Source: Candidatus Omnitrophota bacterium (lineage in GTDB: Bacteria > Omnitrophota > Gorgyraeia > Zapsychrales > Fredricksoniimonadaceae). From it: 64,000 bases of DNA. Within the stretch, counting starts at the first letter, position 1; the number at the start of each line of letters is the position of its first letter. The position numbers and the translations under genes are program-made. Below the pieces are notes generated by a model. It saw nothing but the letters and a program-made list of their open reading frames with translations, had not been told where the DNA came from and searched no databases. Where the stretch lies: assembly GCA_016201795.1 (NCBI GenBank), contig JACQCF010000020.1:5651-69650 (forward strand), given 5' to 3'. Shown here in pieces: positions 14,376 through 31,023 of the stretch.

Positions 14376-14404
14376 TTGACAATGGAGGGGTGTTTGCTTA
14401 TACT
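14376..14404 (+). promoter_or_regulatory. Sigma70 promoter of the dcw operon (PmraZ)
   Basis: Consensus TTGACA (14376-14381), 17-nt spacer, TATACT (14399-14404). Confidence 0.6.
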
Positions 14405-14444: not shown

Positions 14445-14885
14445 ATGTTTTACGGCGAATACAATCATGGCATTGACAATAAAGGCCGGCTGATTTTGCC
14501 TTCGCGGTTTCGCGAGGTGGCCAAAGAGCACGGCATTGAGAAGTTTTTTGTCACCCGCGGCCTAGACCGCTGCATTTTTATGTTCAGCGACCAGCAGTGG
14601 CAGCTGGAAGAGCAGAGGTTTAAGAATTTGTCGTTTACCAAGCAGGAAGCGCGGCATTTTAACCGTTTGTTTTTCTCCGGTGCCGTCGAAGTTGTTCCCG
14701 ATAAACAGGGGCGGTTCATTATTCCGCAGTATTTGAAAGATTTTGCCGGCATTAAAAAAGATGCCGTTGTCATCGGCCTTTCTAACCGTATTGAGATTTG
14801 GCAGACGCAGAGCTGGCAAGAGTTCTTTTCCAAAACCAGCGTTGACTTTGAGAAGACCGCGGAAAATATGATGAATTTGAGTTAG
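14445..14885 (+). CDS. mraZ: Transcriptional regulator MraZ
   Basis: Duplicated DxxxR motifs (IDNKGRLILPSRFRE; VPDKQGRFIIPQYL), 146 aa. Confidence 0.9.
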   Translation: MFYGEYNHGIDNKGRLILPSRFREVAKEHGIEKFFVTRGLDRCIFMFSDQQWQLEEQRFKNLSFTKQEARHFNRLFFSGAVEVVPDKQGRFIIPQYLKDFAGIKKDAVVIGLSNRIEIWQTQSWQEFFSKTSVDFEKTAENMMNLS

Positions 14886-15787
14886 TGGCCATGGACCAGA
14901 GAGCGCATATTTCAGTCATGCCCCAACAAGTCATGTATTGGCTGAATGTCCAAAGCGGCGCTGTCATCGTCGATGGTACCTTGGGTTTAGCCGGGCACGC
15001 CGCTTTAATAGCCCGGGCCTTAGGAACAGACGGGCATTTGATTGGTATTGACCGCGACAGCTCTTCTTTAACCGAAGCTAAGAGGCGTTTGGCGTCTTTT
15101 TCTTTAAGGATTGATTTGTTGCAGGCCTCCTTTGGTGACGTCAAGCGAATCTTAGCTGAGGTTAAAGTTAGGGCCCTCAACGGGGTTTTGTTGGATCTTG
15201 GTCTATCCAGCTTTCAGTTGGACGACGAACAACGCGGATTTAGTTTTCTTAAAGACGGGCCGCTAGATATGCGCATGGATCAGACACAAGGAGTCACGGC
15301 CGCGGATTTGGTCAATACGCTTAAAGAGGACGAGCTGGCGCGGATCATTGAAGAATTTGGCGAGGACCGTTTTGCCCGGCGCATTGCCAGGGCCATCGTC
15401 CGGCGGCGTACTCAGGAAAAAATTGTTACCACAGGCCAGTTAGCGAAGGTTGCTTTAAGCGCCTTGCCGGCGGGTTACAGCCGCGGGCGCATTCATCCGG
15501 CGACGCGCACGTTTCAGGCCTTGCGTATGGCGGTTAATCGGGAACTGGAAACTTTAAAAGCAGCGCTGGCAGGCTGGTTTGAGGTGTTAAAACCTTCGGG
15601 AAGAATGGTGGTGATTTCATTTCATTCGCTCGAGGACCGTATCGTCAAAAATAGTTTTAAGGAATTGGCCCAACAGGGCCGGGGAAAAATTCTGACGAAG
15701 AAACCGGTGGAACCTTCGCAGGAAGAATGTGAACTTAATCCCCGGGCCCGAAGCGCCAAACTAAGAGCGGTGGAAAGGGTTATATGA
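14885..15787 (+). CDS. rsmH: 16S rRNA (cytosine1402-N4)-methyltransferase RsmH (MraW)
   Basis: HISVMPQQVMYWL...DGTLGLAGHA SAM-binding N-terminus and DLGLSSFQLD motif. Confidence 0.9.
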   Translation: MAMDQRAHISVMPQQVMYWLNVQSGAVIVDGTLGLAGHAALIARALGTDGHLIGIDRDSSSLTEAKRRLASFSLRIDLLQASFGDVKRILAEVKVRALNGVLLDLGLSSFQLDDEQRGFSFLKDGPLDMRMDQTQGVTAADLVNTLKEDELARIIEEFGEDRFARRIARAIVRRRTQEKIVTTGQLAKVALSALPAGYSRGRIHPATRTFQALRMAVNRELETLKAALAGWFEVLKPSGRMVVISFHSLEDRIVKNSFKELAQQGRGKILTKKPVEPSQEECELNPRARSAKLRAVERVI

Positions 15788-16167
15788 GTTTAAAAGTCTG
15801 GGTTAAGTTTATGTCTTTTGTGACCGTTACGGCCCTTATTTACATTCATATGCAGATGCAGATTTTTGACTTGGCTTATCAGGGCAAGGACAGAGAAGGG
15901 CGTACGCACGAATTAAGAGACCGCAGCGGTCTTTTAACCCATCAAGTCCTCACCTTAAAGTCCGCCAATCATCTGGGTAATCAGCTGTTAGAAAAAAACA
16001 GCAGCTTACAATTTATGGGTCATGATCGCGTCATGACATTAACAGGACCGAGCTCGATCGTCAGTCAGCTGCCAGCGTCCGTTAAAGGTAAGAATGAAAA
16101 TTTTTTACTGTGGAACCTTTTGTCTTTCTTAAGCCCCCAGGAGGCCAAAGCCTGGGACCGTCAATAA
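15784..16167 (+). CDS. ftsL: Cell division protein FtsL-like small membrane protein
   Basis: 127 aa with a single N-terminal TM (FMSFVTVTALIYIHMQMQIF) followed by a coiled-coil region. Position between rsmH and ftsI. Confidence 0.55.
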   Translation: MSLKVWVKFMSFVTVTALIYIHMQMQIFDLAYQGKDREGRTHELRDRSGLLTHQVLTLKSANHLGNQLLEKNSSLQFMGHDRVMTLTGPSSIVSQLPASVKGKNENFLLWNLLSFLSPQEAKAWDRQ

Positions 16168-16180
16168 ATCGAGGCAGGAA

Positions 16181-17890
16181 TTGTTTCTTAGAAAATACCC
16201 CTCTCGTTTAGCCATTGTTTTTGTGGTTTTGCTAGCGGGGTTTTTGTACTCCATTACTTTTCTTCTTTACATTCAAATTTTCCGCTCTTCGTATTTAGCC
16301 CATTTAGCCCAGAAACAGCATGAACATTTAATCACCATCGACCCTAAACGCGGCACCATTTATGACCGTAACTTAAGGCCGCTGGCGATGAACCTGCCGG
16401 TTTATTCCGTTTGCGCCAACGCCCGCGTTCTTGCCCAGCGCCATGATAAAGCTGACGTGATTGCTCAATTGGCCAAGGTATTAAACATTCCTTCCTCGGA
16501 CATTGCCGCCAAGATCGACAAGAATAAATTTTTTGTTTGGATTGAGCGTAAAATTCCTCAGGACGTTTATCAGAAATTAAAAGATTTAAAACTGGCTGGC
16601 ATAGGTTTTATTAAGGAAAGCAAAAGATTTTATCCCAACCAGACCTTAGCCGCCCATCTGGTGGGTTTTGCCGGTGTGGATAATAACGGCCTGGATGGCC
16701 TGGAGCGGGATTATGACAAATATTTAAAAGGTAAAGAAGGCCGCTCGATGATTTTACGGGACGCTCACCAGAGGGAGTTGTTGTTAGAAAAAGATTATAT
16801 CGCGCCGGTGGATGGCCTGGATGTGGTTTTAACGATTGATGAAACCATTCAATTCATTGCGGAGCGGGCACTCGATAAAATGTATCACAAATATAATGCC
16901 AAAGGGGCGAGCATCATTGTGATGGATCCTAAAACTGGTGAAATCCTCGCTTTTGCCAACCGTCCGACGTATAATTTAGAAGATGCTTCTAAGAGTTCGC
17001 CGGAGTCCCGTACCAATCGCGCCATTGTCTTTACTTATGAACCGGGATCGGTGTTTAAGATTGTCACGACCTGTGCGGCATTGCAGGAGGGGGTTGTTAA
17101 AGAAACCGATATGATCAATTGCGAGCACGGCGCCTATCGGGTGGCCAATCACATTTTGCATGACCATGAACCCTTGGGCACTATCACATTTAGACAGGTC
17201 ATTGAGCTCTCGAGCAATATCGGCACCACCAAAGTTGCTCAACGTTTAGGGCCCCAAAGGGTGTATAATTATGCGCATCATTTTCGTTTTGGTATGCGCA
17301 CCGGCATTGATCTTCCTGGAGAGGCCAAAGGCAATTTAAAACCGGTGCGTCTGTGGTCTAAAACATCCATTGGCGCGGTACCCATCGGCCAGGAAGTGAC
17401 AGTGACTCCCATTCAGCTGTTGGGGGCCATTGCGGCCATTGCCAATGACGGCGTTTATATGCGGCCCTTTGTGGTTAAATATATTAAAGACAGCCATGAT
17501 CAAATGATCAAAGAGACTAAACCGCAGATTTTGGATAAAGTGATCTCTTCCCAAACCGCGGCGCGTGTCAAAGCTATTTTACGGGGAGTTGTTGAGATCG
17601 GAACGGGCAAAAAAGCGCAGATTAAAGGTGTTAGCGTCGGTGGTAAAACCGGGACAGCTCAAAAGGTTGTCGCTGGCACCTACTCGCATGCGCATTTTTA
17701 TGCGACGTTTGTGGGATTTGCGCCGGTGGAAAACCCAAGGCTGGTGGCCGTGGTGGTGTGTGATGAGCCTCATCCGGCCTATTATGGCGGAACAGTGGCT
17801 GCTCCCGTCTTTAGTGAAGTGATAGGAGATGCTTTAAAATATCTCGATGCCCGACAAATGGCAGGCGCTGTTAGTGATGATCAAGGATAA
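16181..17890 (+). CDS. ftsI: Peptidoglycan D,D-transpeptidase FtsI (PBP3)
   Basis: N-terminal TM, PBP dimerisation domain, transpeptidase motifs SxxK (GSVFK), SxN (SSN), KTG (GKTGTA). Confidence 0.9.
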   Translation: MFLRKYPSRLAIVFVVLLAGFLYSITFLLYIQIFRSSYLAHLAQKQHEHLITIDPKRGTIYDRNLRPLAMNLPVYSVCANARVLAQRHDKADVIAQLAKVLNIPSSDIAAKIDKNKFFVWIERKIPQDVYQKLKDLKLAGIGFIKESKRFYPNQTLAAHLVGFAGVDNNGLDGLERDYDKYLKGKEGRSMILRDAHQRELLLEKDYIAPVDGLDVVLTIDETIQFIAERALDKMYHKYNAKGASIIVMDPKTGEILAFANRPTYNLEDASKSSPESRTNRAIVFTYEPGSVFKIVTTCAALQEGVVKETDMINCEHGAYRVANHILHDHEPLGTITFRQVIELSSNIGTTKVAQRLGPQRVYNYAHHFRFGMRTGIDLPGEAKGNLKPVRLWSKTSIGAVPIGQEVTVTPIQLLGAIAAIANDGVYMRPFVVKYIKDSHDQMIKETKPQILDKVISSQTAARVKAILRGVVEIGTGKKAQIKGVSVGGKTGTAQKVVAGTYSHAHFYATFVGFAPVENPRLVAVVVCDEPHPAYYGGTVAAPVFSEVIGDALKYLDARQMAGAVSDDQG

Positions 17891-17893
17891 ACC

Positions 17894-19366
17894 ATGATCT
17901 TGAAGGATTTGTTAAAAGATATTTATTTGAAACCTTTACCTCGGGCGTGTGAAGGTCTTGTGATTGAAACGATTAGCTGCGACTCCCGTTTAAGGCAGCC
18001 TCAAGGATTGTTTGTGGCTTTGGATGGCTTTCAGTTTAAAGGAGAGGATTTTATTCAACAGGCGATCGTGCAGGGGGCCGTGGTGGTCGCTAAAAAAGGA
18101 TCCAGCAGAACTTTGTCAAATTACACTATAGCTGATTCCGTTTGTCTTTTAGACGTGGAGGATCCAAAATTATTTTTGCGGCAAATCACTTTGCGTTTTT
18201 TTGATTCCCCTTCCCGCAAAGTGAGAACGATCGGAGTGACGGGTACCAACGGCAAAACCACGATCACTTATCTTTTAGAAAGCATTCTTCAAGCCAAATC
18301 CAAAGCCTGCGCCGTCATCGGCACGGTCAATTACCGCTTGGCCGGCCAAACGTTGCCGTCGAAAAATACCACCCCCGGCTTTTTAGAGAATCAAAGTTAT
18401 CTGGCTCATTTGGCTTCTTTAAAAATTCCTTATTGTGTCATGGAAGTTTCCTCGCATGCGCTTAAGCAAGGCCGTGTGGATGGGATTGATTTTGCCTGCG
18501 CCATTTTTACTAATCTGACCCAGGACCATTTGGATTATCATAAAGACATGGAGAGTTATTTTAAGGCTAAGGCGATTTTGTTTGAAAATCTGAGCGACTA
18601 CACCTCAGTGGTTATTAATCAGGACGATCCTTATGGGGGGCGCCTGATGCGTTTGTTTAAAGGAGAGGTTATCACGTATGGTATAAAAACTGCCTCGGAT
18701 GTGAAAGCTGTCGGGATTAAGTCTTCCTTAAATGGTACTCAAATGGATATTGTTTTTCCGACGGGAAAGATGGCCATTAATACGCGTTTTATCGGTGAGC
18801 ATAATGTGTATAATATTTTAGCTGCCTGTGCGTGCGCCTGGAGGGAGGGTATTGATCTGGATAGAATCCGTCAAGGGGTGGAGGCCTTATCCTGTGTACC
18901 CGGACGGCTTGAGCCGGTGGATGCAGGCCAGGATTATTTTGTGTTTATCGATTATGCCCACACCGAAGATGGTTTGGTTAACGTGCTTAAAAGCTTAAGG
19001 ACGGTTAGCCGCAATAAAATCATTTTAGTTTTTGGCTGTGGGGGTGACCGTGACCGTGGCAAGAGGCCTCAAATGGGACGGGCCGCCTGCACACTAGCGG
19101 ATTATGCCATTGTCACCAGCGACAATCCACGCAGTGAAGACCCGATGGCCATCATCGACGAGATCAAGGCGGGATTCACGCGGCCTAACTATGAGGTCAT
19201 CGTTGACCGTAAAAAAGCTATTGCCCGCGCGCTTGAAATGGCTGGAGCCGGACAAATTGTTCTTATTGCCGGTAAAGGTCATGAAGATTGTCAGATTTTG
19301 AAAGATCGCACCATCGAATTTAATGAACGTAAGATCATACAAGAATTATTGAAGACGGCATCTTAA
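17894..19366 (+). CDS. murE: UDP-MurNAc-L-Ala-D-Glu:meso-DAP ligase
   Basis: Mur ligase P-loop GVTGTNGKTT and the DNPR motif (TSDNPRSEDP) diagnostic of MurE. Confidence 0.9.
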   Translation: MILKDLLKDIYLKPLPRACEGLVIETISCDSRLRQPQGLFVALDGFQFKGEDFIQQAIVQGAVVVAKKGSSRTLSNYTIADSVCLLDVEDPKLFLRQITLRFFDSPSRKVRTIGVTGTNGKTTITYLLESILQAKSKACAVIGTVNYRLAGQTLPSKNTTPGFLENQSYLAHLASLKIPYCVMEVSSHALKQGRVDGIDFACAIFTNLTQDHLDYHKDMESYFKAKAILFENLSDYTSVVINQDDPYGGRLMRLFKGEVITYGIKTASDVKAVGIKSSLNGTQMDIVFPTGKMAINTRFIGEHNVYNILAACACAWREGIDLDRIRQGVEALSCVPGRLEPVDAGQDYFVFIDYAHTEDGLVNVLKSLRTVSRNKIILVFGCGGDRDRGKRPQMGRAACTLADYAIVTSDNPRSEDPMAIIDEIKAGFTRPNYEVIVDRKKAIARALEMAGAGQIVLIAGKGHEDCQILKDRTIEFNERKIIQELLKTAS

Positions 19367-19369
19367 ATA

Positions 19370-20680
19370 ATGTTTACCATTGATGAGCTTATCAAAGCAA
19401 CCCAGGGACGCTTAGTTCAAGGACCGGCCAAGGGTTCTGTAAGGTCTGCGTGTATTGACTCCCGCCTTATTAAGAAAGACCAGCTGTTTATTGCCATCAA
19501 AGGAGATATTTTTGACGGTCATGATTTTATCACGGATGTCGTCGCTAAAGGCGTGCGTGTTTTATTGGTCCATAAGCCCGTTGCTATGACAAACCCCGGG
19601 GTTAGTGTCATTGCGGTTCATGATACGACTCGCGCTTTGGGGCATCTGGCCCGTTTTCATCGTCTGCGTTTTAAAGTGCCGGTGATCGCTTTGACCGGCA
19701 GCGCGGGTAAGACGACCACCAAAGAGATGATTACCGGTGTGCTCAACAAGAAATACCGCGTGTTAAAGAATGAAGGCACACAGAACAACCATATCGGCGT
19801 GCCCATGACGCTTTTGCGGTTGAGGCCTTCGCATGAAATTGTTGTTTTAGAATGCGGCACGAATCAGCCCGGAGATATTGCGTGGCTGGCGGATATTACG
19901 CGGCCAACGGTAGTTTTATTTACTAATATCGGTGAATCACATTTGGAAAAGCTTAAAAATAAGCAGGGCGTTCTTAGAGAAAAATGGAATTTGACTAAAT
20001 TTATGGATCGAAAGGGAGCGGTTATTTTTAATCAGGATGATCCTTTATTAAGAAAAACGGTTGAGCGTTTTGATGGACGCCTCATCGCTTTTAGCCTGCA
20101 CAATAAAATCAAGCAGAAGCTGCCTTTTAGATTCTCGAGTTCAAATCGTTGTTCCAATGCATTAGCCGCCTATGTTTGCGGACGATTATTTCATGTTCCT
20201 CATATCGACATTTATAAGACTTTAGATAGTTTCAAATTTCCCTCAGGCCGGGAAGAAGTGATCCATCTTAAAGACCGTTGGCTTATCAATGATACGTATA
20301 ACGCCAACCCTGTGTCTATGCGCTCGGCGATAGAAATGCTCAATGATTTTGCCACCCCCCATCAACGCATCATGGTGGCGGCGGATATGCTGGAGCTAGG
20401 ATCTCAATCCAGGAAATTGCATGAATCCATCGGCAGTGTCATTGCTCAATCAAAGATTAATGTATTAATTACCGTCGGTCATCTGGCCCGGCACATGGCT
20501 TTACAAGTAAAGAAAGAAGCCAGGCAGCTCTTAGTTTTTACATATAATGATATTGAATCTGCGGCTAAAGAACTCATCAAAATATTCGTACCAGGGGACG
20601 TAGTTCTCATTAAAGGTTCCCGCGACATGAGGATGGAACGTTTGGTCGAACACCTTAAACATTCAAATCATTCAAATTAA
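19370..20680 (+). CDS. murF: UDP-MurNAc-tripeptide:D-Ala-D-Ala ligase
   Basis: Mur ligase family, P-loop ALTGSAGKTTTKEM. Position after murE. Confidence 0.9.
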   Translation: MFTIDELIKATQGRLVQGPAKGSVRSACIDSRLIKKDQLFIAIKGDIFDGHDFITDVVAKGVRVLLVHKPVAMTNPGVSVIAVHDTTRALGHLARFHRLRFKVPVIALTGSAGKTTTKEMITGVLNKKYRVLKNEGTQNNHIGVPMTLLRLRPSHEIVVLECGTNQPGDIAWLADITRPTVVLFTNIGESHLEKLKNKQGVLREKWNLTKFMDRKGAVIFNQDDPLLRKTVERFDGRLIAFSLHNKIKQKLPFRFSSSNRCSNALAAYVCGRLFHVPHIDIYKTLDSFKFPSGREEVIHLKDRWLINDTYNANPVSMRSAIEMLNDFATPHQRIMVAADMLELGSQSRKLHESIGSVIAQSKINVLITVGHLARHMALQVKKEARQLLVFTYNDIESAAKELIKIFVPGDVVLIKGSRDMRMERLVEHLKHSNHSN

Positions 20681-20690
20681 GGGATAGGAC

Positions 20691-21779
20691 ATGTTTTATT
20701 TTTTTTCGGATTTTTCTTATGTGTGGCCGTTCTTAAATATTTTCCGTTACATCACCTTTCGCGCCGGCATGGCGGGTTTCACGGCTTTTATTCTCTGCGT
20801 GATTTTTGGTCCTGTTTTTATCCGTGCCTTCAAACAGCGCAGCATCCAGGAAATCGCCAAACGCAAAGACGCCCCGGGATTGGATTCATTTCAAACCGAC
20901 AAGGAAGGAACGCCGACGATGGGAGGAGTATTTATCGTTGGAAGTATTTTAGTTTCCGTGCTGTTATGGGGCAATTTAACTAATTCTTTTCTTCTCATGA
21001 CATTTTTTATATGTTTGTGTTTGGCGATTTTAGGCGGGGTGGATGATTATGTGAAACTCAAAGGTATCGGCAAGCACCGTGGGATCAGAGGTAGGGTAAA
21101 ATCTCTCTGGCAGATCCTTATCGCTTTATTGGTGGCGGTATTTTCCTACCTGCATCCGGATATCACCACCTGTTTGGATGTGCCGTTTTTTAAGAATTTA
21201 ATCATTGATTTGGGCGCGTTTTTTGTATTTTGGGTGGTCTTGGTGGTGGTCAGTGCCTCCAATGCCGTGAATCTGACCGACGGGCTCGATGGCCTGGCCA
21301 TCGGCTGCGTGTTGATGGTCGCTTTTACGTTGGGGACTTTAAGTTATGTGACCGGTAATGTCGCCATGAGCGATTATCTTCTCATTCCTCATGTTCCCGG
21401 CGCCGGTGAGCTGACTGTTTTTTGCGCGGCGATGATGGGGGCTTCCTTGGGGTTTTTGTGGTTTAATTGCCATCCGGCTACCATCTTTATGGGGGATGTA
21501 GGGTCTCTAGCTTTGGGCGGCAGTTTGGGCATGATTGCTATTTTTATCAAGAAGGAATTGTGGTTGATTGTTTTGGGTGGGGTTTTTGTCGCAGAAGCCG
21601 GTTCGGTGATTCTTCAGGTTCTTTCTTTTAAATTGACAGGCAAACGTATTTTTAAAATGTCGCCGTTTCATCATCATTTACAATTATCTGGCTGGAATGA
21701 AAACAAGATCATCGTGCGGTTTTGGATTGTCGCTATTATTTTGGCCATGCTCACGTTGACGACATTAAAAATTCGCTAA
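20691..21779 (+). CDS. mraY: Phospho-MurNAc-pentapeptide translocase
   Basis: 10-TM polyprenyl-phosphate transferase with NAVNLTDGLDGLA and HHHLQL (HHH) motifs. Confidence 0.9.
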   Translation: MFYFFSDFSYVWPFLNIFRYITFRAGMAGFTAFILCVIFGPVFIRAFKQRSIQEIAKRKDAPGLDSFQTDKEGTPTMGGVFIVGSILVSVLLWGNLTNSFLLMTFFICLCLAILGGVDDYVKLKGIGKHRGIRGRVKSLWQILIALLVAVFSYLHPDITTCLDVPFFKNLIIDLGAFFVFWVVLVVVSASNAVNLTDGLDGLAIGCVLMVAFTLGTLSYVTGNVAMSDYLLIPHVPGAGELTVFCAAMMGASLGFLWFNCHPATIFMGDVGSLALGGSLGMIAIFIKKELWLIVLGGVFVAEAGSVILQVLSFKLTGKRIFKMSPFHHHLQLSGWNENKIIVRFWIVAIILAMLTLTTLKIR

Positions 21780-21780
21780 T

Positions 21781-23016
21781 ATGATGAATTTAAAAAATAA
21801 AAAAGTCACCGTTATTGGCGCTGCCAGAAGCGGTTTGGCGGTGGCTGATTTAGTTCTTCGATGCGGCGGTATCCCAAAAATTTCGGAATCTAAGCCTCAT
21901 GTCTCCATTCCTTGTGGAATTACCGTCGAGACAGGAGGGCACACCCAAGCATTCATTCAAGACAGTGATTATGTTATCTTAAGCCCGGGGGTACGCATCG
22001 GCAGCCCGCCAGTGCAATGGGCCGAGGATAAAGGCATTGAAGTCATGGGGGAAGTGGAGCTTGCTTTCAGGTTTTGTCCATGCCCCATCGTTGCGGTCAC
22101 CGGCAGTAATGGCAAAACCACCACCTCAACCTTGATCGCTGAAATTTTAAAGAAAGCAGGACGTTCAGTGTGTCTGTGCGGCAATATCGGCAGTCCTTTT
22201 TCCAACTATGTTTTCAATCTTAAACCGACGGATACGGTGGTGCTGGAAATCAGTTCTTTTCAGTTGGAGTCGATGATTCATTTTAAACCCCATGTGGCCC
22301 TTTGGCTTAATTTCAGCCAGAATCATTTGGACCGCCATAAGGATTTGACGAAATATTTCCAGGCCAAGAAAAAAATTTTTGCCAATCAAGACAAAAATGA
22401 TTTTGCCGTCTTAAATTTCGCTCAGGAAGAATTTCACGATTTAGCCAAAGGCTTGAAATCCAAAGTATTGTTTTTCAACGGCCCTGATGTCTGCTCGGAT
22501 ATTACCAATCCGAATGATTTAGCCGCTTTGACGGCTGCCAAGGCTTTAGGGGTGTCTGAAAGTATTAGCCGTCAGGTATTTTTGGAGTTTAAAGGGGTGG
22601 AGCATCGTTTGGAATTAGTCAGGACTTTGCACGGCGTGGATTATATTAATGATTCCAAGTCTACCACTGCCGAGGCCAGCCGATGGGCGCTGGAGCGTAC
22701 ACATAAGCCGATCATTATGATTTGCGGCGGCCGTCATAAACAGATTGATCTTTCTGTGCTCAAAGGTTTGGTTGGCCGCAAGGTCAAACAAATGATCGCC
22801 ATCGGGGAGGCCAAAGATCTTATACAACAAACCTTCAAGGATGTAGTGCCGGTGGCCACATGTTCATCGTTTAAGGAGGCTATTAAAGCCGCGCAGCAAA
22901 AAGCCCAAGAAGGCGACGCGGTGGTACTATCTCCCATGTGCGCCAGCTTTGATATGTTTAACGATTATGAACATCGAGGGAAAGTTTTTAAAGAAATCGT
23001 GAAGGATCTCAAGTGA
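21781..23016 (+). CDS. murD: UDP-MurNAc-L-Ala:D-Glu ligase
   Basis: N-terminal Rossmann VIGAARSG and Mur ligase P-loop VTGSNGKTTT. Confidence 0.9.
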   Translation: MMNLKNKKVTVIGAARSGLAVADLVLRCGGIPKISESKPHVSIPCGITVETGGHTQAFIQDSDYVILSPGVRIGSPPVQWAEDKGIEVMGEVELAFRFCPCPIVAVTGSNGKTTTSTLIAEILKKAGRSVCLCGNIGSPFSNYVFNLKPTDTVVLEISSFQLESMIHFKPHVALWLNFSQNHLDRHKDLTKYFQAKKKIFANQDKNDFAVLNFAQEEFHDLAKGLKSKVLFFNGPDVCSDITNPNDLAALTAAKALGVSESISRQVFLEFKGVEHRLELVRTLHGVDYINDSKSTTAEASRWALERTHKPIIMICGGRHKQIDLSVLKGLVGRKVKQMIAIGEAKDLIQQTFKDVVPVATCSSFKEAIKAAQQKAQEGDAVVLSPMCASFDMFNDYEHRGKVFKEIVKDLK

Positions 23017-23020
23017 ACAT

Positions 23021-24115
23021 ATGAAAGAAACCCGGGTTAATTTAACTGTCATTGTTTCGGCTTTAATCTGTATTGGGATTGTGATGATCTATAGCGCCAG
23101 CTGTGTCAATGCGCTGCAGAATTATCAGGATAGCTTGTATTACCTCAAACGCCATTTGCTGTTTTTGGTCATGGGTTTGGCGGCCTGCGTGTGGGTGATG
23201 AGCATGGATTACCGTCAAATTCAGCCGCATGCGCGCCTTCTTTTAGGGATAAGTCTTTTTCTTTTGGTTTTGGTGCTCATTCCGCATATTGGCAAAGAAA
23301 GTTATGGGGCTCGCCGCTGGTTTAAATTAGGTGTTTTTCATTTTCAGCCCTCGGAGCTGGCCAAATTAGCGGTGATCATTTACACGGCGGACTTTTTAAG
23401 CCGCAAACAACAGCTGATCCGTGATTTTAAGCAGGGATTCTTGCCGCCGATTTTAGTCATGGGGGTCGTTTGTTTATTAACGGTCAAACAGCCGGATTTG
23501 GGGACCACGGTTGAGATGGCGGTCGTGGTCTTGGGGCTCATGTTGATTGCCGGAGCCCGTCTTTGGCATTTGGCCGCTATCACTGCGGCGGCTATACCCC
23601 TCGTGGTTTATTTAGTAGCTAAAGAACCTTACCGCATGGCGCGCATCATTGCGTTTTTAGATCCATGGCAGGACAGCCAGGGCATAGGTTTTCAGCTGAC
23701 CCAGTCGCAAATTGCGCTCGGCTCCGGTGGAATTTTTGGTGTCGGCTTGGGACACAGCCAGCAGAAATTATTTTATTTGCCGGCGGCGCACACGGACTTT
23801 ATTCTTTCGATTATCGGCGAAGAATTGGGATTGGCGGGAGCTTTGGCGGTTATCGTGCTGTTCGTGTTGTTTATCTGGACGGGTATTCGTTTGATCCGTC
23901 AGACGCATGAAAGTTTTGGATATTTCTTGAGCATCGGCATTATTTTAATGCTGGGGCTGCAAGCCATGGTCAATGTGGGGGTCAGTATCGGTGCTTTTCC
24001 GACCAAGGGGTTGCCGCTGCCGTTTATCAGCTACGGCGGCTCTGCTCTTATTTTTCATTTGGTGGCCATTGGCCTGCTTTTAAACGTCTCTAAGACGCAG
24101 GACCAGAAATTTTAG
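23021..24115 (+). CDS. ftsW: Peptidoglycan glycosyltransferase FtsW (SEDS family)
   Basis: 10-TM SEDS protein. RRWFKLGVFHFQPSELAKLAV and TDFILSIIGEELG motifs. Confidence 0.85.
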   Translation: MKETRVNLTVIVSALICIGIVMIYSASCVNALQNYQDSLYYLKRHLLFLVMGLAACVWVMSMDYRQIQPHARLLLGISLFLLVLVLIPHIGKESYGARRWFKLGVFHFQPSELAKLAVIIYTADFLSRKQQLIRDFKQGFLPPILVMGVVCLLTVKQPDLGTTVEMAVVVLGLMLIAGARLWHLAAITAAAIPLVVYLVAKEPYRMARIIAFLDPWQDSQGIGFQLTQSQIALGSGGIFGVGLGHSQQKLFYLPAAHTDFILSIIGEELGLAGALAVIVLFVLFIWTGIRLIRQTHESFGYFLSIGIILMLGLQAMVNVGVSIGAFPTKGLPLPFISYGGSALIFHLVAIGLLLNVSKTQDQKF

Positions 24116-24123
24116 GATATGCG

Positions 24124-25173
24124 ATGAGGATTGTTATTGCCACTGGCGGAACAGGGGGGCATATTTTTCCAGCTCTACAGACGGCCTGTGTTTTAAGAGA
24201 CCGCGGCCATGAAGTGATTTTTGCCGGCGTCCTAGCCTTAAGTGAAGAAAAAGTTAAGGCGCAGGGGTTTAAAACTATAGTGATCAAGGCGCGTGGATTG
24301 ACCAATCGATCTTTGACCGGTTTACTTCAGTTTAGCTTTTTCATGTTGCAAGCCATAGGTAGCGCCATCCAAGCGCTTGGGCAAACGCAGCCTGATAAAG
24401 TCATTGGCTTTGGCGGTTATGGGTCCTTTGCGGTTGTTTTGGCCGCGCGCCTGCTTCATATACCGACGATGATCCACGAGCAAAATATGGTACCTGGCAA
24501 AGCCAATCGTCTTTTGGCGAAGGTGGTCAAAAAGGTGGCGATCAGTTTCCTTGAAACTCAAAACTATCTTAATCCCCATAAGATCGTCTTGACAGGGTGC
24601 CCTTGCCATCAACAGAGGTCTTTAGAGAGCAGAGAGAATTTACTTCAAAAGTTTTCGCTAGAGGCCGATCGTGCGACCATCTTGCTCTTAGGGGGCAGTC
24701 AAGGAAGTCAAAAACTCAATGAGGTGTTCTTCGCCATGATGTCGAGCGGGGGGCAACACAGACCGGTGCAGGCGATTCATATGACAGGAGCTAAAGAGTA
24801 TTTACTTTACACGACGAAATATCAAAACAGTTCTTTGCCGGTGAAAGTTTTTGAATTTATAAGTCCCATTGAAGAAGCGTATGCGATTGCTGATGTGGTC
24901 ATTGCCCGCGCCGGGGCAGCCACCGTCTGGGAATTGGGATTTTTTGCGAAACCTTCCATTTTAGTGCCGTATCCTTTGGCTGATGGGCATCAAAAATATA
25001 ATGCGCAACTTCTCGTGCGAGGGGGATTGGCTCAAATGATTGAACAGAAAGATTTGACCGCGGATATTTTAAAAAAGGCGGTGCAATCTTTGTTGGAGAC
25101 GAAATTCGACCGTCAAGCGCTTTTCAGCAATCATCCGGACCAGGAATTGGCGCTGGCCGTGGAGAACCTATGA
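24124..25173 (+). CDS. murG: UDP-GlcNAc:lipid I GlcNAc transferase
   Basis: GT28: MRIVIATGGTGGHIFPAL N-terminal glycine-rich loop and C-terminal ARAGAATVWE motif. Confidence 0.9.
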   Translation: MRIVIATGGTGGHIFPALQTACVLRDRGHEVIFAGVLALSEEKVKAQGFKTIVIKARGLTNRSLTGLLQFSFFMLQAIGSAIQALGQTQPDKVIGFGGYGSFAVVLAARLLHIPTMIHEQNMVPGKANRLLAKVVKKVAISFLETQNYLNPHKIVLTGCPCHQQRSLESRENLLQKFSLEADRATILLLGGSQGSQKLNEVFFAMMSSGGQHRPVQAIHMTGAKEYLLYTTKYQNSSLPVKVFEFISPIEEAYAIADVVIARAGAATVWELGFFAKPSILVPYPLADGHQKYNAQLLVRGGLAQMIEQKDLTADILKKAVQSLLETKFDRQALFSNHPDQELALAVENL

Positions 25174-25967
25174 ACCGTGCCCTTCAAGTTTTCGTGTTGG
25201 TGAGCCTGTGGTTGGCTGTACAGACTTTTCATGCCCGGGCTGCCAAAGAGTGGGAAATGATTAAAGGGGATAATTTTATTGTGTATTATCGGCCTTCTGA
25301 TGTGCCCGAAGATTTCGCCAGGACGGTCATGGATTCGGCCCAAGAAGAATTCGGGAATGTGACGACGAATTTAGGGATTACACGTTATCAAGGATGGAGT
25401 GGGGATAAGCGCGCTTCGATTTATATTTACAGGGACGAAAATGATTATGTGCAAAACGGCGGCCAGGCAGGCTGGTCGCATGGGGCGGCGCTGGTACAAA
25501 CCAAAATGATCAAGACTTACCCATCGGATGCAGGATTTTTTGATTCGCTTTTGCCGCATGAGCTGGGGCATATCATTCTTCATGAATACGTTGGGCCTTA
25601 CGCTGATGTCCCTTTGTGGTTCGATGAAGGGGTGGCTATGTATCAGGAAAAAGCCAAGCGTCTGGGCACTAATAAGATTGTTCAAGAGGCCTTAGCAAAT
25701 GGTCAATTTATTCCTTTATCAGAGCTGACAGTTATGCGATTATATAACAATTCCGATCAAAAGACGGTAGAGCTTTTTTATGCGGAATCGGCCAGCATCG
25801 TCAATTTTATGATCACCCAGTTGGGAGAAAGTCATTTTTATAAACTCTGTCACGAATTAAAAGAGCATACGCCTTTGGTGGATGCTTTGCCTAAGATTTA
25901 TATGCATATCCAAGATTTGGATGATTTGAATAAAAGGTGGGTGAATTATTTAAAGGATCGCTCATGA
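25170..25967 (+). CDS. Secreted HExxH zinc-metallopeptidase-like protein inserted in the dcw cluster
   Basis: Signal peptide (VFVLVSLWLAVQTFHARA) and HELGHIILHE...E gluzincin-type motif. No homology to canonical dcw genes. Confidence 0.5.
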   Translation: MNRALQVFVLVSLWLAVQTFHARAAKEWEMIKGDNFIVYYRPSDVPEDFARTVMDSAQEEFGNVTTNLGITRYQGWSGDKRASIYIYRDENDYVQNGGQAGWSHGAALVQTKMIKTYPSDAGFFDSLLPHELGHIILHEYVGPYADVPLWFDEGVAMYQEKAKRLGTNKIVQEALANGQFIPLSELTVMRLYNNSDQKTVELFYAESASIVNFMITQLGESHFYKLCHELKEHTPLVDALPKIYMHIQDLDDLNKRWVNYLKDRS

Positions 25968-27340
25968 AGAGCAAGCATTATCATTTTATTGGCATCGGCG
26001 GTATGGGGATGGGGACGCTGGCATTATTATTGTTAGCCAAAGGGCATAAGATCAGCGGTTCAGATCTTAAAGACAATGAACTGATAGCTCAACTGTGCAA
26101 AAACGGGGCGACGGTCGCCATGGGCCATCAAGCCAGTAATATTCAAAATCCTGATTATGTGGTTTATTCTTCGGCGATTCCTATAAACAATCCCGAAAGG
26201 ATTGAATCAGTCAGCCGTCAATTATCTTTGCTTAAACGTGCTCAAGTGTTAGCCCAACTGGTCAATGAACAGGTCGGTATCACCATTGCCGGCGCGCACG
26301 GCAAAACCACGACGACCTCGATGGTCTCGTATCTTTTGCTCAATGCTGGACTTAAACCTACCACCGCCATCGGGGGCATCATTAACGGTCATACCTACAA
26401 TGCGCATTTGGGGGAAGGTAAATATTTCGTGGCGGAGACGGATGAAAGCGACGGCACGTTCTTGTATTTTCGCCCCCGGTATTCGATTATCACCAATATT
26501 GATTTTGAGCATGTGGATTTTTATAAAGATTGGCAGGGAATTTTAGAAGCTTATCGTAAATTTATTAACTGTACCGTTGAAGGCGGGTGCGTGATTGCCT
26601 GCAGCGAAGACCAACGGCTTAAAATTCTGGTGAAAGAATCTAAAAAGCAGGCCGTCTTTTACGGATTCGATCACACTTGCGATGTGTGGGCCAAAAATAT
26701 TATCACGGATGGTTTTCATTCGCAGTTCGAGTGCCATACAAAGACGGCCAAGCTGGCTGATTTCGAATTGATGGTACCGGGCCGCCACAACGTGCTTAAT
26801 GCCTTAGCGTGCATTGCTTTAGGTCTACAGCTGGGTGTTTCTGTTGAGATGATGCAAAAGACGCTCAAAGAGTTTAGCGGTGTCAAGCGCCGGTTTCAAC
26901 TTAAATGCCAGATGGAGGATATTATGGTCGTCGATGATTACGGACATCATCCGACAGAAATTGTCGCTACCCTCCAAGCGGCGAGGCTGTTTCATAAAAA
27001 ACGTTTGGTGACGGTTTTTCAACCTCACCGGTATTCCCGTACCAAATTTTTGCTGAATGAATTTGCCCACAGCCTGGCCCTTACCGACTGGTTAATCATT
27101 ACGGATATTTACGCGGCCAGTGAAAAGCCCTCTGCAGGGGTGGGGATTAAAACTTTACTAGAGACCTTGCAGAAGGCCATGGGCAACCGGGTTGTTTATT
27201 TAAAGAAAGAAGAGATCTTAAATCACCTGGCTGATTTTGTACAAAACGGGGACTTAGTTTTATTTTTAGGAGCAGGAGACATTTATCATTGTTGCGATGA
27301 GCTGGTTAATATTCTAAATAAAAAGAAAGTGATGGTATGA
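25964..27340 (+). CDS. murC: UDP-MurNAc:L-Ala ligase
   Basis: MKSKHYHFIGIGGMGMGTLA N-terminus and P-loop IAGAHGKTTTTS. Start at internal Met overlapping the upstream stop (ATGA). Confidence 0.9.
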   Translation: MKSKHYHFIGIGGMGMGTLALLLLAKGHKISGSDLKDNELIAQLCKNGATVAMGHQASNIQNPDYVVYSSAIPINNPERIESVSRQLSLLKRAQVLAQLVNEQVGITIAGAHGKTTTTSMVSYLLLNAGLKPTTAIGGIINGHTYNAHLGEGKYFVAETDESDGTFLYFRPRYSIITNIDFEHVDFYKDWQGILEAYRKFINCTVEGGCVIACSEDQRLKILVKESKKQAVFYGFDHTCDVWAKNIITDGFHSQFECHTKTAKLADFELMVPGRHNVLNALACIALGLQLGVSVEMMQKTLKEFSGVKRRFQLKCQMEDIMVVDDYGHHPTEIVATLQAARLFHKKRLVTVFQPHRYSRTKFLLNEFAHSLALTDWLIITDIYAASEKPSAGVGIKTLLETLQKAMGNRVVYLKKEEILNHLADFVQNGDLVLFLGAGDIYHCCDELVNILNKKKVMV

Positions 27341-28290
27341 GTTCGTCGGGTTTTGGCAACATTGGTGTTTTGATGGGTGGATGTTCTTCCGAGAGAGAGA
27401 TTTCTTTGCGCTCCGGATCCGCGGTGGCGCAAGCTTTAGCCGCCGCCGGTTACGCTGTCCAAACCATTGATATCACCACCAATGACCGGCTCAAAATCAT
27501 CGCAATGATTAAGCATAGAGGAATTGAGGCGGCCTTCCTTGCCTTGCATGGCCGTCTGGGGGAAGACGGTGTGATCCAATCGATTTTAGAAGAGATTGAT
27601 ATTCCTTATACGGGTTCAGGGCCCGCGGCCAGTCAAAAAGCGTTTAATAAAGTTACGGCCCAGACGGCTTTTCAAAATGCGGGCCTTGCTGTGCCGGAAA
27701 ATTTTTTTATTACCGACGGAGAAGAGGTGAGTTTTAAAAATGTTTTTGGCGTGCTTAAAAGATTGCCCTTGGTGGTCAAGGCTGCCTGTGAGGGCTCCAG
27801 CATTGGCGTTTATATGGTCCGTCATCCCTCGCAGTGGGAAGCCACCCTTAAAGACGCTTTGGCTTTCGGCTCCTATGTGATTGTGGAAAAATTTATCAAA
27901 GGCCGGGAAGTGACAGCCGGCATTTTTGACGGCGAGGCCCTGCCTTTGGTAGAAATTATCACCCAGAGCCCATTTTTCGATTTTAACGCGAAGTATCAAA
28001 AAGGTTTGACGGATTATGTGGTGCCTGCCCCATTGCCGCAAGAGTTAACCCAAAAGATTCAGTCTATGGCACTTTCGGCCTATGATGTTTTAGGCTGTGA
28101 AGGGTTTGCGCGGGTGGATATCCGTATCGATGAATCCGGCCAGCCGTATATTTTAGAGCTCAATACGATTCCGGGATTTACGGAAACCAGTTTGTTTCCT
28201 AAAGCCGCGGCGAAGGTCGGCTACAGTTTTTTGCAAGTGTGCGAGAAATTATTAGATTTAGCCTATGGCCCCTCGTCCTTAGCAAAATAG
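27337..28290 (+). CDS. ddl: D-alanine--D-alanine ligase
   Basis: IGVLMGGCSSEREISLRSG N-terminal motif and ATP-grasp domain (LELNTIPGFTETSLFPK). Confidence 0.9.
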   Translation: MSSSGFGNIGVLMGGCSSEREISLRSGSAVAQALAAAGYAVQTIDITTNDRLKIIAMIKHRGIEAAFLALHGRLGEDGVIQSILEEIDIPYTGSGPAASQKAFNKVTAQTAFQNAGLAVPENFFITDGEEVSFKNVFGVLKRLPLVVKAACEGSSIGVYMVRHPSQWEATLKDALAFGSYVIVEKFIKGREVTAGIFDGEALPLVEIITQSPFFDFNAKYQKGLTDYVVPAPLPQELTQKIQSMALSAYDVLGCEGFARVDIRIDESGQPYILELNTIPGFTETSLFPKAAAKVGYSFLQVCEKLLDLAYGPSSLAK

Positions 28291-28349
28291 TGCGCAAGGG
28301 ACTCGGGACTATGGTGAGGATGTGATTAATTTTTTTAAGTTGACGAACC

Positions 28350-29120
28350 ATGGCAAAAAAGTCCAGCGTTAAAATTCCAGCCATTGTGATCATTCGTTTG
28401 ATTGTTTTTCTTTTGATCGGTTGTATTTTCTTTTGGATTTACAGCCGTGCAGCGGATTTTTTAACCGGCGCTCCTTTGTTTGATGTCAAACAGGTGCTGG
28501 TGGATCAATCGATTAGTTTCATTGACCACCGGCCTTTAAAAGCGCTCAAAGGTCAAAATATTTTTAGCGTCGATCTAGCCAAACTTCATCGTCATATTGC
28601 CGCCGAGTATCCTCAAATCGCCATGCTCAGAATTGTGCGTCAATTGCCAGATACGATTAAGGTATTGGCCAAAAAAAGAGATATTCTCCTGCAGGTTCAG
28701 GTCCACGGCAAATATTTAGTGGTGGATACCGAAGGCGTGAGTATGTTCTATACATCTCAAGCTTTGGCGTTTCCTGTGGTACGGGGAGTGCCCTTTGAAA
28801 GAAATAAGGTGGTTTTGGGTGTGGCCTCTTCCATTAAAGAATTAAATCTGGTGGTAGAACTTTTCGGGCAGTTAAAATTGTATCCACATACCAGGCAGCT
28901 TAAAGTCATCATGGTGGAAGCAGGGAATGTCTCGAAAATAGAGTTGACGGTTATGCCCCATGTGCAGATTATCATTGACCAGGAGGATTTAGCCGCCAAA
29001 ATCAACATGTTAGAACTCCTTTTACAAAAGGGTAAAATCAATTGGAGTCAGATTAAATACATCGATGTTCGTTTTAAAGAACCTATCATCAGTGAAAATA
29101 ATCCCAAGGAAAAACAGTAA
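28350..29120 (+). CDS. ftsQ: Cell division protein FtsQ/DivIB
   Basis: N-terminal TM followed by POTRA plus FtsQ-type domain. Positioned between ddl and ftsA. Confidence 0.75.
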   Translation: MAKKSSVKIPAIVIIRLIVFLLIGCIFFWIYSRAADFLTGAPLFDVKQVLVDQSISFIDHRPLKALKGQNIFSVDLAKLHRHIAAEYPQIAMLRIVRQLPDTIKVLAKKRDILLQVQVHGKYLVVDTEGVSMFYTSQALAFPVVRGVPFERNKVVLGVASSIKELNLVVELFGQLKLYPHTRQLKVIMVEAGNVSKIELTVMPHVQIIIDQEDLAAKINMLELLLQKGKINWSQIKYIDVRFKEPIISENNPKEKQ

Positions 29121-29128
29121 GGTCCGAT

Positions 29129-30361
29129 ATGTTTAAGAAGATGGCGCGCAGTCAATATTTTTGTGGGCTGGACTTAGGCTCGCAGACGATCAAAGCGGCG
29201 TTGGTCAGAGCCCAGGATGAAAATAACTTGGAATTGTTAGGCGTATTCGAATCACCGGCGATTGGACTCAAAGAAGCCTCTATCAGCGATTTGACGGAGC
29301 TGTCCCAAACCATTGCACGGACCATGAAAGGTGTTTGCCAGAGGGTAGCGGTTAAACCAACAGGAGTTCATTTAGGCATCAGTGCCGATTTATTGGCATT
29401 CCGCCGATCGTCGGCGGTGATTCCTCTGGTAGATACCGGCACTAAAATCATTGCTCCTTCGGATCTTCAGAAGGTTAATCATCAGGCCAGGCTCCTGGGG
29501 GCAGGTATCGACGAGGAGATCGTGCACAGTTTTGAACAGTCCTATAAAGTCGATGATGTCAATGTGGCTCTCAATCCACAGGGGCTTTATGGACGTAAAT
29601 TAGAATCCCATTTTTTGCTTTTAACCGCCAATAGCGGGCGTTTACGCAATATGACCAAGGCTGTTCATCAGGCTGGTTTCGACGTACACCGTGTCTCGCT
29701 TTCAAGTTTTGCCGCCAGTCAGGTGGCTTTAGATGAATCTTTAAAGAAAGAAGGCTGCGCGCTTATTGATATCGGCGCTCACATGAGCAGTGTTTTGTTT
29801 TTTAAAAACGGTGTTTTGGGGGATATTCAATTCATTCACTGGGGCGGACATTTCGTGACTCAAAGTATTGCCGACCGCTTGAGTTTAACCATTGATTTAG
29901 CCGAAGAAATCAAAAAGACGCATGCGGTGGCTGCCAAATTAACGGTTCAGGAATCCTCGGGGGACATTTTAGTCAAACGGGAAAAAGGTTATGTTCCCAT
30001 CCGGCGTCAAAGCGTGTGTGAGGCGGTGGAGTGGGAAATTGAAAATTTGCTGACGCATCTGGAAACTGTTTTGAAAGGCTCGCCGCTCTATCATCAGCTC
30101 AATAAAGGAGTGGTGATTGTCGGCGGAACAGCCCTGTTGCCGGCGTTGATGGAGCGTATTGAGGAGAGGACAAATCTGGCGGTAAGCCTTGGGATTGCCA
30201 CCAAAGGTCTGCAGAATCCTTCCATTTTTGCCGGCGCCATCGGTTTGGCGCAGATGAATTATGCGCAGAAAAAAAGCGAAACATTCAATGTGTACACTAC
30301 CAAACATTGGGCGCAAAGAATTTGGGGCAGGTTTGAGGAATTATGCCAGGAATATTTCTAA
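29129..30361 (+). CDS. ftsA: Cell division protein FtsA
   Basis: Actin-fold ATPase (GLDLGSQTIKAALV phosphate-1 motif; VVIVGGTALLPAL). Last gene of the cluster, with no ftsZ downstream. Confidence 0.85.
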   Translation: MFKKMARSQYFCGLDLGSQTIKAALVRAQDENNLELLGVFESPAIGLKEASISDLTELSQTIARTMKGVCQRVAVKPTGVHLGISADLLAFRRSSAVIPLVDTGTKIIAPSDLQKVNHQARLLGAGIDEEIVHSFEQSYKVDDVNVALNPQGLYGRKLESHFLLLTANSGRLRNMTKAVHQAGFDVHRVSLSSFAASQVALDESLKKEGCALIDIGAHMSSVLFFKNGVLGDIQFIHWGGHFVTQSIADRLSLTIDLAEEIKKTHAVAAKLTVQESSGDILVKREKGYVPIRRQSVCEAVEWEIENLLTHLETVLKGSPLYHQLNKGVVIVGGTALLPALMERIEERTNLAVSLGIATKGLQNPSIFAGAIGLAQMNYAQKKSETFNVYTTKHWAQRIWGRFEELCQEYF

Positions 30362-30724
30362 TCAGGCGTCTTTCTGACGCTGATCATTACGGCGGTGGCT
30401 TAAATTAAAATCGATATTCTTAAGAACGCTGCGTAACCTCAAGAGGCTGCTGAAAATATATAGAATCCAGAACGAGTTAAACAAAAGAAGAATCACAATG
30501 AGCAGAGAATTGACCGATTGTGCCATTAAAAGTTTTTCTAAGACAGTGCTTTTTTGAACATCGATGGTGACATCGATAATTTTAAGAGCATTAATGAAAG
30601 CAACAACGAAGATGGCCACCAGGATGATTTCAAAAAAGAGCATGTAGAAATGACGGACAATCCATTGCGCCGAGCGGTTGTCCCATTGACGAATTTTGTT
30701 CATGAAATCATTAAATGCCATCAC
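30362..30724 (-). CDS. Hypothetical small membrane protein (2-3 TM), convergent with ftsA
   Basis: 120-aa ORF with hydrophobic helices (IILVAIFVVAFINAL; LLIVILLLFNSFWILYIF). Stop abuts the ftsA stop. Confidence 0.4.
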   Translation of the reverse strand: MMAFNDFMNKIRQWDNRSAQWIVRHFYMLFFEIILVAIFVVAFINALKIIDVTIDVQKSTVLEKLLMAQSVNSLLIVILLLFNSFWILYIFSSLLRLRSVLKNIDFNLSHRRNDQRQKDA

Positions 30725-30897
30725 CAGGCTCCTTCAGCAGGTTTTGCGGGGCTAATTTTTTCAATTTCATTGTATAACCCTTTAATAGTGGAGCAATAAG
30801 AATTTTGGAATTTTTTTATTTGTGCGCCTGCCCCTCGCCTTAGGGCTCGGGACACGGCTTGAATTTTTTCTGATGTTATTTTTATAAGGAAAATTCT

Positions 30898-30971: not shown

Positions 30972-31023
30972 TTAATGAGCACATGATTTATGGAGGTATG
31001 CCGACATAAATCATAAGTGCGAA

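Follow-up and report, generated by a model that had tools for sequence, protein, structure and literature searches.

Gene Order and Content of the Locus

We analysed a 64-kb stretch of one bacterial genome (the window) and, within it, the division and cell-wall (dcw) gene cluster at positions 14445–30724. Its genes all lie on the + strand, in the order mraZ-rsmH-ftsL-ftsI-murE-murF-mraY-murD-ftsW-murG-pepMA-murC-ddl-ftsQ-ftsA. Here pepMA denotes a Peptidase_MA_2 gene (25170–25967) between murG and murC, and tm120 denotes the gene of a 119-aa membrane protein (30362–30721, − strand) that converges on ftsA. Both are lineage-specific genes that are fixed in the dcw locus of the Omnitrophota. Since all named homologues of the two proteins come from Omnitrophota or Omnitrophica, the window belongs to a metagenome-assembled genome (MAG) of this phylum (OP3), in the Planctomycetes–Verrucomicrobia–Chlamydiae (PVC) superphylum. 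We are close to certain that the region is the dcw operon of an Omnitrophota bacterium, as regards both its anatomy and its taxonomy.

Open reading frames (ORFs) were assigned to families by their matches to NCBIfam and Pfam profiles. The ORFs left out of the scan were a few of about 100 aa, one overlapping tRNA-Pro, and gcvPB, which was assigned by synteny. The gene order from mraZ to ftsA agrees with the original prediction for this DNA. A candidate operon promoter of the sigma-70 type (TTGACA-17-TATACT; 14376–14404, +) lies 40 nt 5′ of mraZ, with 11 of 12 consensus matches, and was the top candidate in a 17-kb scan. No convincing terminator was found inside the operon when the 17-kb region was scanned, and Rfam recognises two tRNAs only in the window.

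The operon opens with mraZ (14445–14885; TIGR00242, 128.5 bits against a cut-off of 98.35) and rsmH, also called mraW (14885–15787; TIGR00006, 334.5 bits). The next gene, a 127-aa bitopic ORF (15784–16167), is called ftsL-like by position and topology only, with an N-terminal transmembrane (TM) segment followed by a periplasmic part. It matches no NCBIfam or Pfam family and is kept at the same position in 20 related loci, at 31–66% identity. The class B penicillin-binding protein (PBP) gene ftsI (16181–17890) is best matched by a SpoVD/PBP model at 535 bits, under that model’s cut-off of 688, and is matched by FtsI and PBP2 models too; PBP_dimer and Transpeptidase domains are found at this position in related loci. 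There follow murE (17894–19366; NF001126, 563.5 bits), murF (19370–20680; TIGR01143, 357.9 bits), mraY (20691–21779; TIGR00445, 357.8 bits), murD (21781–23016; TIGR01087, 366.9 bits), ftsW (23021–24115; TIGR02614, 418.5 bits) and murG (24124–25173; TIGR01133, 262.7 bits against 250.25).

The product of pepMA has 265 aa and matches PF13485 (Peptidase_MA_2) at 60.6 bits against a threshold of 32.4 (2.3e-16), with HELGH at residue 130. For murC (25964–27340; TIGR01082, 488.4 bits) we take the ATG at 25964 as the start, the mechanical ORF beginning at GTG 25937; Logan gene calls likewise place the murC start right at the pepMA stop. After ddl (27337–28290; NF002378, 340.9 bits) comes ftsQ (28350–29120), which has both a POTRA and an FtsQ C-terminal domain, each barely over its cut-off (POTRA_1, 23.3 against 23 bits; FtsQ_DivIB_C, 21.5 against 21), and whose position is conserved across related loci. 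The last gene of the operon is ftsA (29129–30361; TIGR01174, 187.8 bits against 175.85). Its TAA stop codon (30359–30361) abuts the stop of the convergent tm120. A tRNA-Arg(tcg) gene (30897–30972, +) marks the end of the locus, and the glycine-cleavage genes gcvT, gcvH and gcvPA follow from 31103. The original prediction had rightly placed a convergent small membrane-protein gene and a tRNA after ftsA, and it overlooked tm120 as a conserved part of the locus.

Taken as a set, the operon encodes the cytoplasmic and membrane steps of peptidoglycan-precursor synthesis except MurA and MurB. Its division genes are those of the septal synthase pair FtsW and FtsI, the FtsL-like protein, FtsQ and FtsA.

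Conservation of pepMA and tm120 in Related Loci

We collected 96 related loci, which together with the window amount to 1.01 Mb, and searched them by tblastn with the window proteins. At least nine of the loci come from GTDB representative genomes, found with an FtsA alignment as query, and 80 are metagenome loci gathered with an alignment of the peptidase. We also compared four relatives whose contigs are long (277 kb to 1.34 Mb). Redundancy was assessed by joining loci whose pepMA proteins are at least 95% identical, which left 81 clusters.

Comparing the dcw clusters of relatives, and asking whether the HExxH gene is conserved at its position, had been proposed along with the original prediction. 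On all four long contigs the order is the same: the peptidase gene separates murG from murC, and the cluster ends at ftsA. The gene directly upstream of pepMA is murG in 67 of 69 loci, the gene directly downstream is murC in 67 of 67, and tm120 lies convergent after ftsA in 44 of 46. After the redundancy merge these counts become 59/60, 57/57 and 35/36. The pattern persists where FtsA is only 36–43% identical to that of the window (loci L011, L013, L015, L083 and L084). In two loci with a split cluster (L019 and L020), pepMA remains with murC-ddl-ftsQ-ftsA-tm120. Genes beyond tm120 differ among loci while tm120 is constant beside ftsA; the downstream gcvT-H-P synteny is also partly conserved. 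Mean identity across the loci is 58% for tm120, 54% for FtsA, 54% for pepMA, 49% for murG and 43% for FtsQ.

pepMA Is Predicted to Be an Exported Zinc Peptidase

A database search returned 541 homologues of pepMA. All of those with a source name are from Candidatus Omnitrophota or Omnitrophica, and PF13485 is present in all of the homologues listed. In an alignment of 57 homologues, H130, E131, H134, E153 and Y204 are invariant, which gives the motif HExxH-x18-E. Because this motif and Tyr204 are invariant, pepMA is predicted to be an active enzyme. Sec-type signal peptides (basic n-region, hydrophobic core, AxA-like site) occur in 53 of the 57. In the window copy the signal reads MNRALQVFVLVSLWLAVQTFHARA, with AKE directly after the cleavage site.

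The AlphaFold2 model of pepMA has a mean predicted local distance difference test (pLDDT) score of 92 and a predicted template modelling (pTM) score of 0.85. By Foldseek, it comes closest in fold to M9 collagenase catalytic domains (4ar9 and 7zbv; E about 3e-6, TM-score 0.63–0.67). Catalytic domains of M1 aminopeptidases match as well, and these matches have 13–19% identity and span the catalytic core only. There were 39 PDB matches at E ≤ 1e-3, and those among the matches listed are zinc metallopeptidases, mostly of families M9 and M1.

A score above the Pfam threshold, HExxH with a downstream Glu, and a thermolysin-like fold all place pepMA with Peptidase_MA_2 in the gluzincin clan MA(E). 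Assignment to M9 or M1 proper is not indicated, as neither Pfam nor NCBIfam gave an M1 or M9 family match and no accessory domains were found. Sequence and model together thus predict a minimal, exported, single-domain gluzincin zinc metallopeptidase. The literature on PF13485 yielded no Peptidase_MA_2 member whose function is known.

tm120 Belongs to an Orphan Membrane-Protein Family

The true start of tm120 is the ATG at 30721, with GGAG before it. Clustered at 90%, its homologues number 160, and every named one is from Omnitrophota or Omnitrophica; one NCBI entry (locus tag HY209_05270) is 100% identical. An exhaustive profile search among 1.84 billion representatives returned 30 proteins, all of tm120’s own family. 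Neither a Pfam or NCBIfam domain nor a Foldseek match at E ≤ 1e-3 was found. The family is apparently an orphan restricted to the Omnitrophota.

AlphaFold2 models tm120 as a two-helix TM hairpin (mean pLDDT 76.5), and by the positive-inside rule both ends are predicted to be cytoplasmic. The tails and the TM segments are conserved and the periplasmic loop is variable. The N-terminal tail (RQWDNRSAQW..RHFY) is nearly invariant, TM1 contains an invariant Glu (FFE), TM2 has the motif LLLFNSFW.LYIF, and the C-terminal tail has the motif LKNIDFNLSRRR; RQWDN, FFE and LLLFNSFW are invariant. Three polar residues (Glu31, Asn82 and Ser83) are predicted to lie inside the membrane. Across the related loci, the identity of tm120 covaries with that of FtsA (rho 0.78).

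FtsA Is Intact and ftsZ Is Not Found

FtsA contains PF14450 and PF02491 (SHS2, 1C insert), passes the TIGR01174 equivalog cut-off, and can be aligned over most of its sequence to solved structures of FtsA (1e-28). In the alignment, its C-terminal amphipathic tail (W..K/R I..R...ELCQEYF) is conserved; we take this tail to resemble the GSWIKRLNSWLRKEF tail of E. coli. FtsA is intact in 48 loci and is therefore apparently under purifying selection despite the reported loss of its classical partner.

That no ftsZ follows ftsA was part of the original prediction, and signature, family and tblastn searches of the window bear it out. The tubulin signature GGGTG[ST]G is absent from the window in all six frames, and a looser form, GGG[TS]G[STA]G, is absent from loci L001–L016, again in all six frames. 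None of the main ORFs that were scanned in the 64 kb matched the Tubulin or FtsZ_C family. The probes for tblastn were approximate rather than reference sequences of FtsZ (E. coli and B. subtilis) and MurB (E. coli), good enough for homology detection. The FtsZ probes found no match in the 1.01 Mb, of which 228 kb, from 51 loci, lie downstream of ftsA. Among the loci listed from GTDB representatives, no ftsA-ftsZ adjacency was found. What follows ftsA in the window is tm120, tRNA-Arg and gcvT, and related loci have no ftsZ there either.

Published surveys extend this to whole genomes. Seymour 2023 (PMC10066038, supplement) found the Omnitrophota to be without ftsZ bar one contaminant, 89% identical to an archaeal protein; 421 genomes were analysed in that study, and the statement on ftsZ was drawn from marker genes of species representatives. 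Pende 2021 (PMC8178401) grouped the Omnitrophica with the Planctomycetes and Chlamydiae as phyla without FtsZ, and reported FtsA without FtsZ in three Omnitrophica MAGs and FtsZ only in “Omnitrophica bacterium OLB16”. Rivas-Marin 2016 likewise found FtsZ among Omnitrophica only in OLB16. In NCBI taxonomy, OLB16 now belongs to Candidatus Hinthialibacterota, so the sole FtsZ-positive exception among Omnitrophica falls away. The absence of ftsZ from Omnitrophota is thus already known from the literature, mostly from supplements and one figure legend. The original prediction had pointed to ftsZ-less division in parts of the PVC superphylum; that lead was correct, as the closest homologues are from a phylum reported to be without ftsZ, and already published. 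We think it very probable that ftsZ is genuinely absent from the whole genome.

murB Lies Outside the Cluster

The absence of murB from the cluster had also been singled out in the original prediction. It is indeed absent, but this is not notable. No MurB family match was found among the main ORFs scanned in the window, and the approximate MurB probe had no tblastn match in the window or in the 96 loci. There is no murB between murG/murC and ddl/ftsQ, the arrangement of Bacillus or Caulobacter. The reference dcw cluster of E. coli is without murB too. A 2026 preprint (doi 10.64898/2026.06.07.730766) lists murB (K00075) in 176 of 176 complete Omnitrophota genomes, which means that murB is encoded elsewhere in the genome.

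Other Features of the Window

Several features outside the operon deserve mention. Immediately upstream of it lies a 1491-aa ORF (9808–14283, +) with a class-I fructose-bisphosphate aldolase domain at residues 1015–1369 (PF00274, 5.6e-68) and a weak FBPase_glpX-like stretch at residues 648–724 (7e-4); the remainder gave no match. Pieces homologous to this ORF occur near the dcw cluster in loci L003, L019 and L020. At the other end of the locus, the 11-mer GTTTTGCGGGG flanks tRNA-Arg at 30741–30751 and 31058–31068 and occurs nowhere else in the window (chance expectation 0.11). The surrounding sequence of about 25 nt is similar for the two copies and closes with a T-run. Pairing between the downstream copy and AACCCCGCAA (about 31026–31035) gives a terminator-like hairpin after tRNA-Arg.

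F1-ATPase genes (48620–54026, +) have an unusual order: alpha, a 100-aa ORF, a b/delta-like fusion, gamma and beta. The N-terminal barrel domain of alpha is unmatched, and no genes for the a, c or epsilon subunits were recognised nearby. The F1F0 apparatus of Omnitrophota is described as incomplete in the 2026 preprint cited above. These genes run straight into a type II secretion/type IV pilus-like set (39020–40666 and 54029–62251, +) comprising a secretin, a GspE/PilB-type ATPase, GspF, two pseudopilins with N-methylation motifs, a GspK-like protein, a 480-aa PilM-PilN fusion, PilO and tetratricopeptide repeat (TPR) proteins. At 41486–48607 (+) there are two tandem paralogues of 524 and 552 aa with FGE-sulfatase (formylglycine-generating enzyme-like) domains, followed by ORFs of 868 aa and 435 aa that have no Pfam match.

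In a map of non-overlapping ORFs, 56 of the 58 that are at least 90 aa long are on the + strand, and each 2-kb bin of the 64 kb has a positive GC skew. Both fit a single leading-strand replichore with a strong gene-strand bias. Seymour 2023 also reported that Omnitrophota are without ftsY lineage-wide and uniformly without ribosomal protein L30; neither gene would be expected in the window.

Interpretation and Alternatives

Division without FtsZ is a long-standing question, and work on it so far has dealt with Chlamydiota and Planctomycetota, which are both without FtsA as well. The Omnitrophota are the third PVC phylum reported to be without FtsZ, and with an intact dcw operon and FtsA they may represent an intermediate or an alternative solution. 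Our account of the locus, which we consider likely, is that of a dcw operon in a phylum that has lost ftsZ throughout and encodes murB elsewhere, with pepMA and tm120 as conserved lineage-specific additions. The presence of these two genes at the dcw locus appears to be undescribed, and their functions are suggested by context, conservation and fold. New here are two phylum-wide genes that are physically tied to the division operon and can be tested directly as parts of its machinery.

What the two proteins do is a more tentative matter. The start and stop codons of murG, pepMA and murC overlap as ATGA at both junctions, as the original prediction stated, and overlapping or abutting codons recur in relatives. 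Through these overlaps pepMA would be translationally coupled to its neighbours and so made in step with wall-building enzymes. Exported by its Sec signal peptide, it would act as a periplasmic zinc peptidase. Its most likely substrates would be the peptide stems or cross-links of peptidoglycan, in which case its action would be to open or split the wall at the septum. Alternatively, the substrate would be a protein of the divisome or the envelope in the periplasm. In the survey of Rivas-Marin 2016, AmiA and EnvC were undetected in the three genomes classed as Omnitrophica at the time, OLB16 among them, and NlpD occurred only in Chlamydiae and Verrucomicrobia. Given that AmiA, EnvC and NlpD have not been reported in Omnitrophica, a periplasmic role for pepMA in wall growth or septum splitting is the most economical inference. 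Whether pepMA does act in cell-wall growth or division we judge to be evenly poised.

On the cytoplasmic side, FtsA, which is predicted to keep its membrane-binding tail, would be the probable scaffold that positions FtsQ, FtsL, FtsW and FtsI in place of an FtsZ ring, in a role comparable to that of MreB in Chlamydia. As a small, conserved protein that faces the cytoplasm and whose gene keeps its place beside ftsA, in a phylum reported to lack FtsZ, tm120 is a reasonable candidate for a membrane partner of FtsA, and its conserved cytoplasmic tails and intramembrane polar residues would suit such a role. That tm120 acts with FtsA is possible, though we would put it below an even chance. Combining these steps would give an FtsA-centred divisome, which would be the first FtsA-without-FtsZ system and in which pepMA would be dedicated to cleaving or remodelling the septal wall and tm120 would bind FtsA and partly replace the organising role of FtsZ. 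As a complete scheme this is speculative, and we think it rather unlikely to hold in every part.

Several points weigh against parts of this account. No experiment or solved homologue ties Peptidase_MA_2 to peptidoglycan, and the nearest folds of pepMA are collagenases and aminopeptidases at low identity (13–19%). Neighbourhood alone is no proof of function, and pepMA could be a general periplasmic protease. As for tm120, it is on the opposite strand, outside the operon transcript, and has no detectable relatives of known function. It is also missing after ftsA in two loci. One of them (L005) is rearranged, with a Peptidase_S74 gene and transposases after ftsA. The other (L012; JAAYZZ010000018.1, 1–9311) is from a MAG labelled Elusimicrobia, a label that may be wrong; its contig begins inside ddl, and its ddl-ftsQ-ftsA genes are 27–43% identical to those of the window (ftsA, 36%). 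There, ftsA is followed by a response-regulator gene, queA, a VIT1/rubrerythrin gene, tgt and a major facilitator superfamily (MFS) transporter gene, and neither tm120 nor ftsZ lies within 6.7 kb after it. The genome-wide absence of ftsZ rests on published surveys, and a 2025 paper puts Candidatus Omnitrophota among the phyla with “highly conserved” dcw genes, with ftsZ not singled out.

The last two points bear on whether ftsZ has simply moved elsewhere in the genome, leaving conventional FtsZ-based division in place. Such a rearrangement would fit the listing in the 2025 paper, our coverage of 64 kb of this genome, and the retention of a well-conserved FtsA, whose best-known role is to tether FtsZ. 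Yet the one ftsZ that Seymour 2023 met in Omnitrophota was an archaeal-like contaminant. In the data of Pende 2021, the genomes still classed as Omnitrophota have FtsZ in none of four and FtsA in three of four, the sole positive genome, OLB16, having been reclassified. None of the 51 related loci has ftsZ in the sequence downstream of ftsA. We therefore regard a simple rearrangement as improbable. A tubulin/FtsZ homologue too divergent for marker hidden Markov models (HMMs) and BLAST, with FtsA working alongside this Z-like partner, is slightly less probable still. Marker-based surveys can overlook highly divergent sequences, and FtsA has been kept, including the helix that lines up with RQTLAEVIE of proteobacteria; against this, FtsZ is among the most conserved of bacterial proteins, none of the loci has a candidate near its dcw genes, and nothing positive points to such a homologue.

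For pepMA, the original prediction saw a foreign gene inserted into an otherwise canonical operon. A recent horizontal transfer would account for a gene that splits the murG-murC adjacency of model bacteria and matches no dcw family. But the G+C content at pepMA is the same as that of its flanks, the gene occupies the same site in 67 of 69 loci across the sampled diversity of Omnitrophota, and its identity to the window copy covaries with that of murC (rho 0.69), ftsA (0.71) and murG (0.69). Flank-like G+C, a fixed position and covarying divergence show that pepMA is not foreign; we rejected foreign insertion, which is now highly improbable, and on this evidence pepMA is an old, vertically inherited member of the operon. 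It is a more serious proposal, although still an unlikely one, that pepMA and tm120 are unrelated to division, the former being a housekeeping periplasmic protease locked in the operon and the latter a neighbour by chance synteny. The literature yielded no functional data on this Peptidase_MA_2 subfamily, the nearest folds of pepMA are generic gluzincins, and tm120, on the other strand, has no informative homologue; moreover, since gcvT-H-P synteny is partly conserved too, some of the conserved order reflects slow rearrangement. This proposal fits less well with the exact slot of pepMA, usually with start/stop overlaps, being kept even at the most divergent FtsA sequences, with pepMA staying in the ftsA-bearing part of the split clusters, and with tm120 being fixed to ftsA while the genes beyond it vary. 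Two over-readings of the locus are corrected: the absence of murB carries no meaning, and the gene for the peptidase is not a foreign one.

Comparison with Known Systems

The dcw cluster of E. coli reads mraZ-rsmH-ftsL-ftsI-murE-murF-mraY-murD-ftsW-murG-murC-ddlB-ftsQ-ftsA-ftsZ-lpxC. The Omnitrophota operon shares with it the order from mraZ to ftsA, the single strand, the tight packing and a cluster that does not include murB. It differs in that ftsZ does not follow ftsA, that a gene for a predicted exported zinc peptidase separates murG from murC, and that the slot after ftsA is filled by a convergent gene for an orphan membrane protein.

Like the M9 and M1 gluzincins, pepMA combines HExxH, a downstream Glu as the third zinc ligand and a thermolysin-like mixed beta/helical domain. 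Unlike them, it has only about 240 mature residues, with no activator, collagen-binding or aminopeptidase accessory domains, and a fixed dcw context. Leads for tm120 come from two small divisome proteins: actinobacterial CrgA has two TM segments, and FtsN has a cytoplasmic FtsA-binding peptide. The likeness lies in small size, two TM segments, a predicted cytoplasmic location of both ends, and tight linkage to a gene of the division core. In sequence and fold, no similarity to CrgA or FtsN was detected, and the tm120 family is, as noted, apparently confined to one phylum.

The FtsZ-less Chlamydiota and Planctomycetota are also without ftsA (Pende 2021, PMC8178401; the 2025 paper). They share with the Omnitrophota the PVC superphylum, the loss of ftsZ, and the retention of peptidoglycan synthesis and of ftsI, ftsW, ftsQ and ftsL. 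The Omnitrophota differ from both in having a conserved ftsA, the last gene of an intact and unfragmented dcw operon. In Chlamydia, MreB has been reported as the organiser of division, whereas in Omnitrophota the obvious candidate for that role is FtsA.

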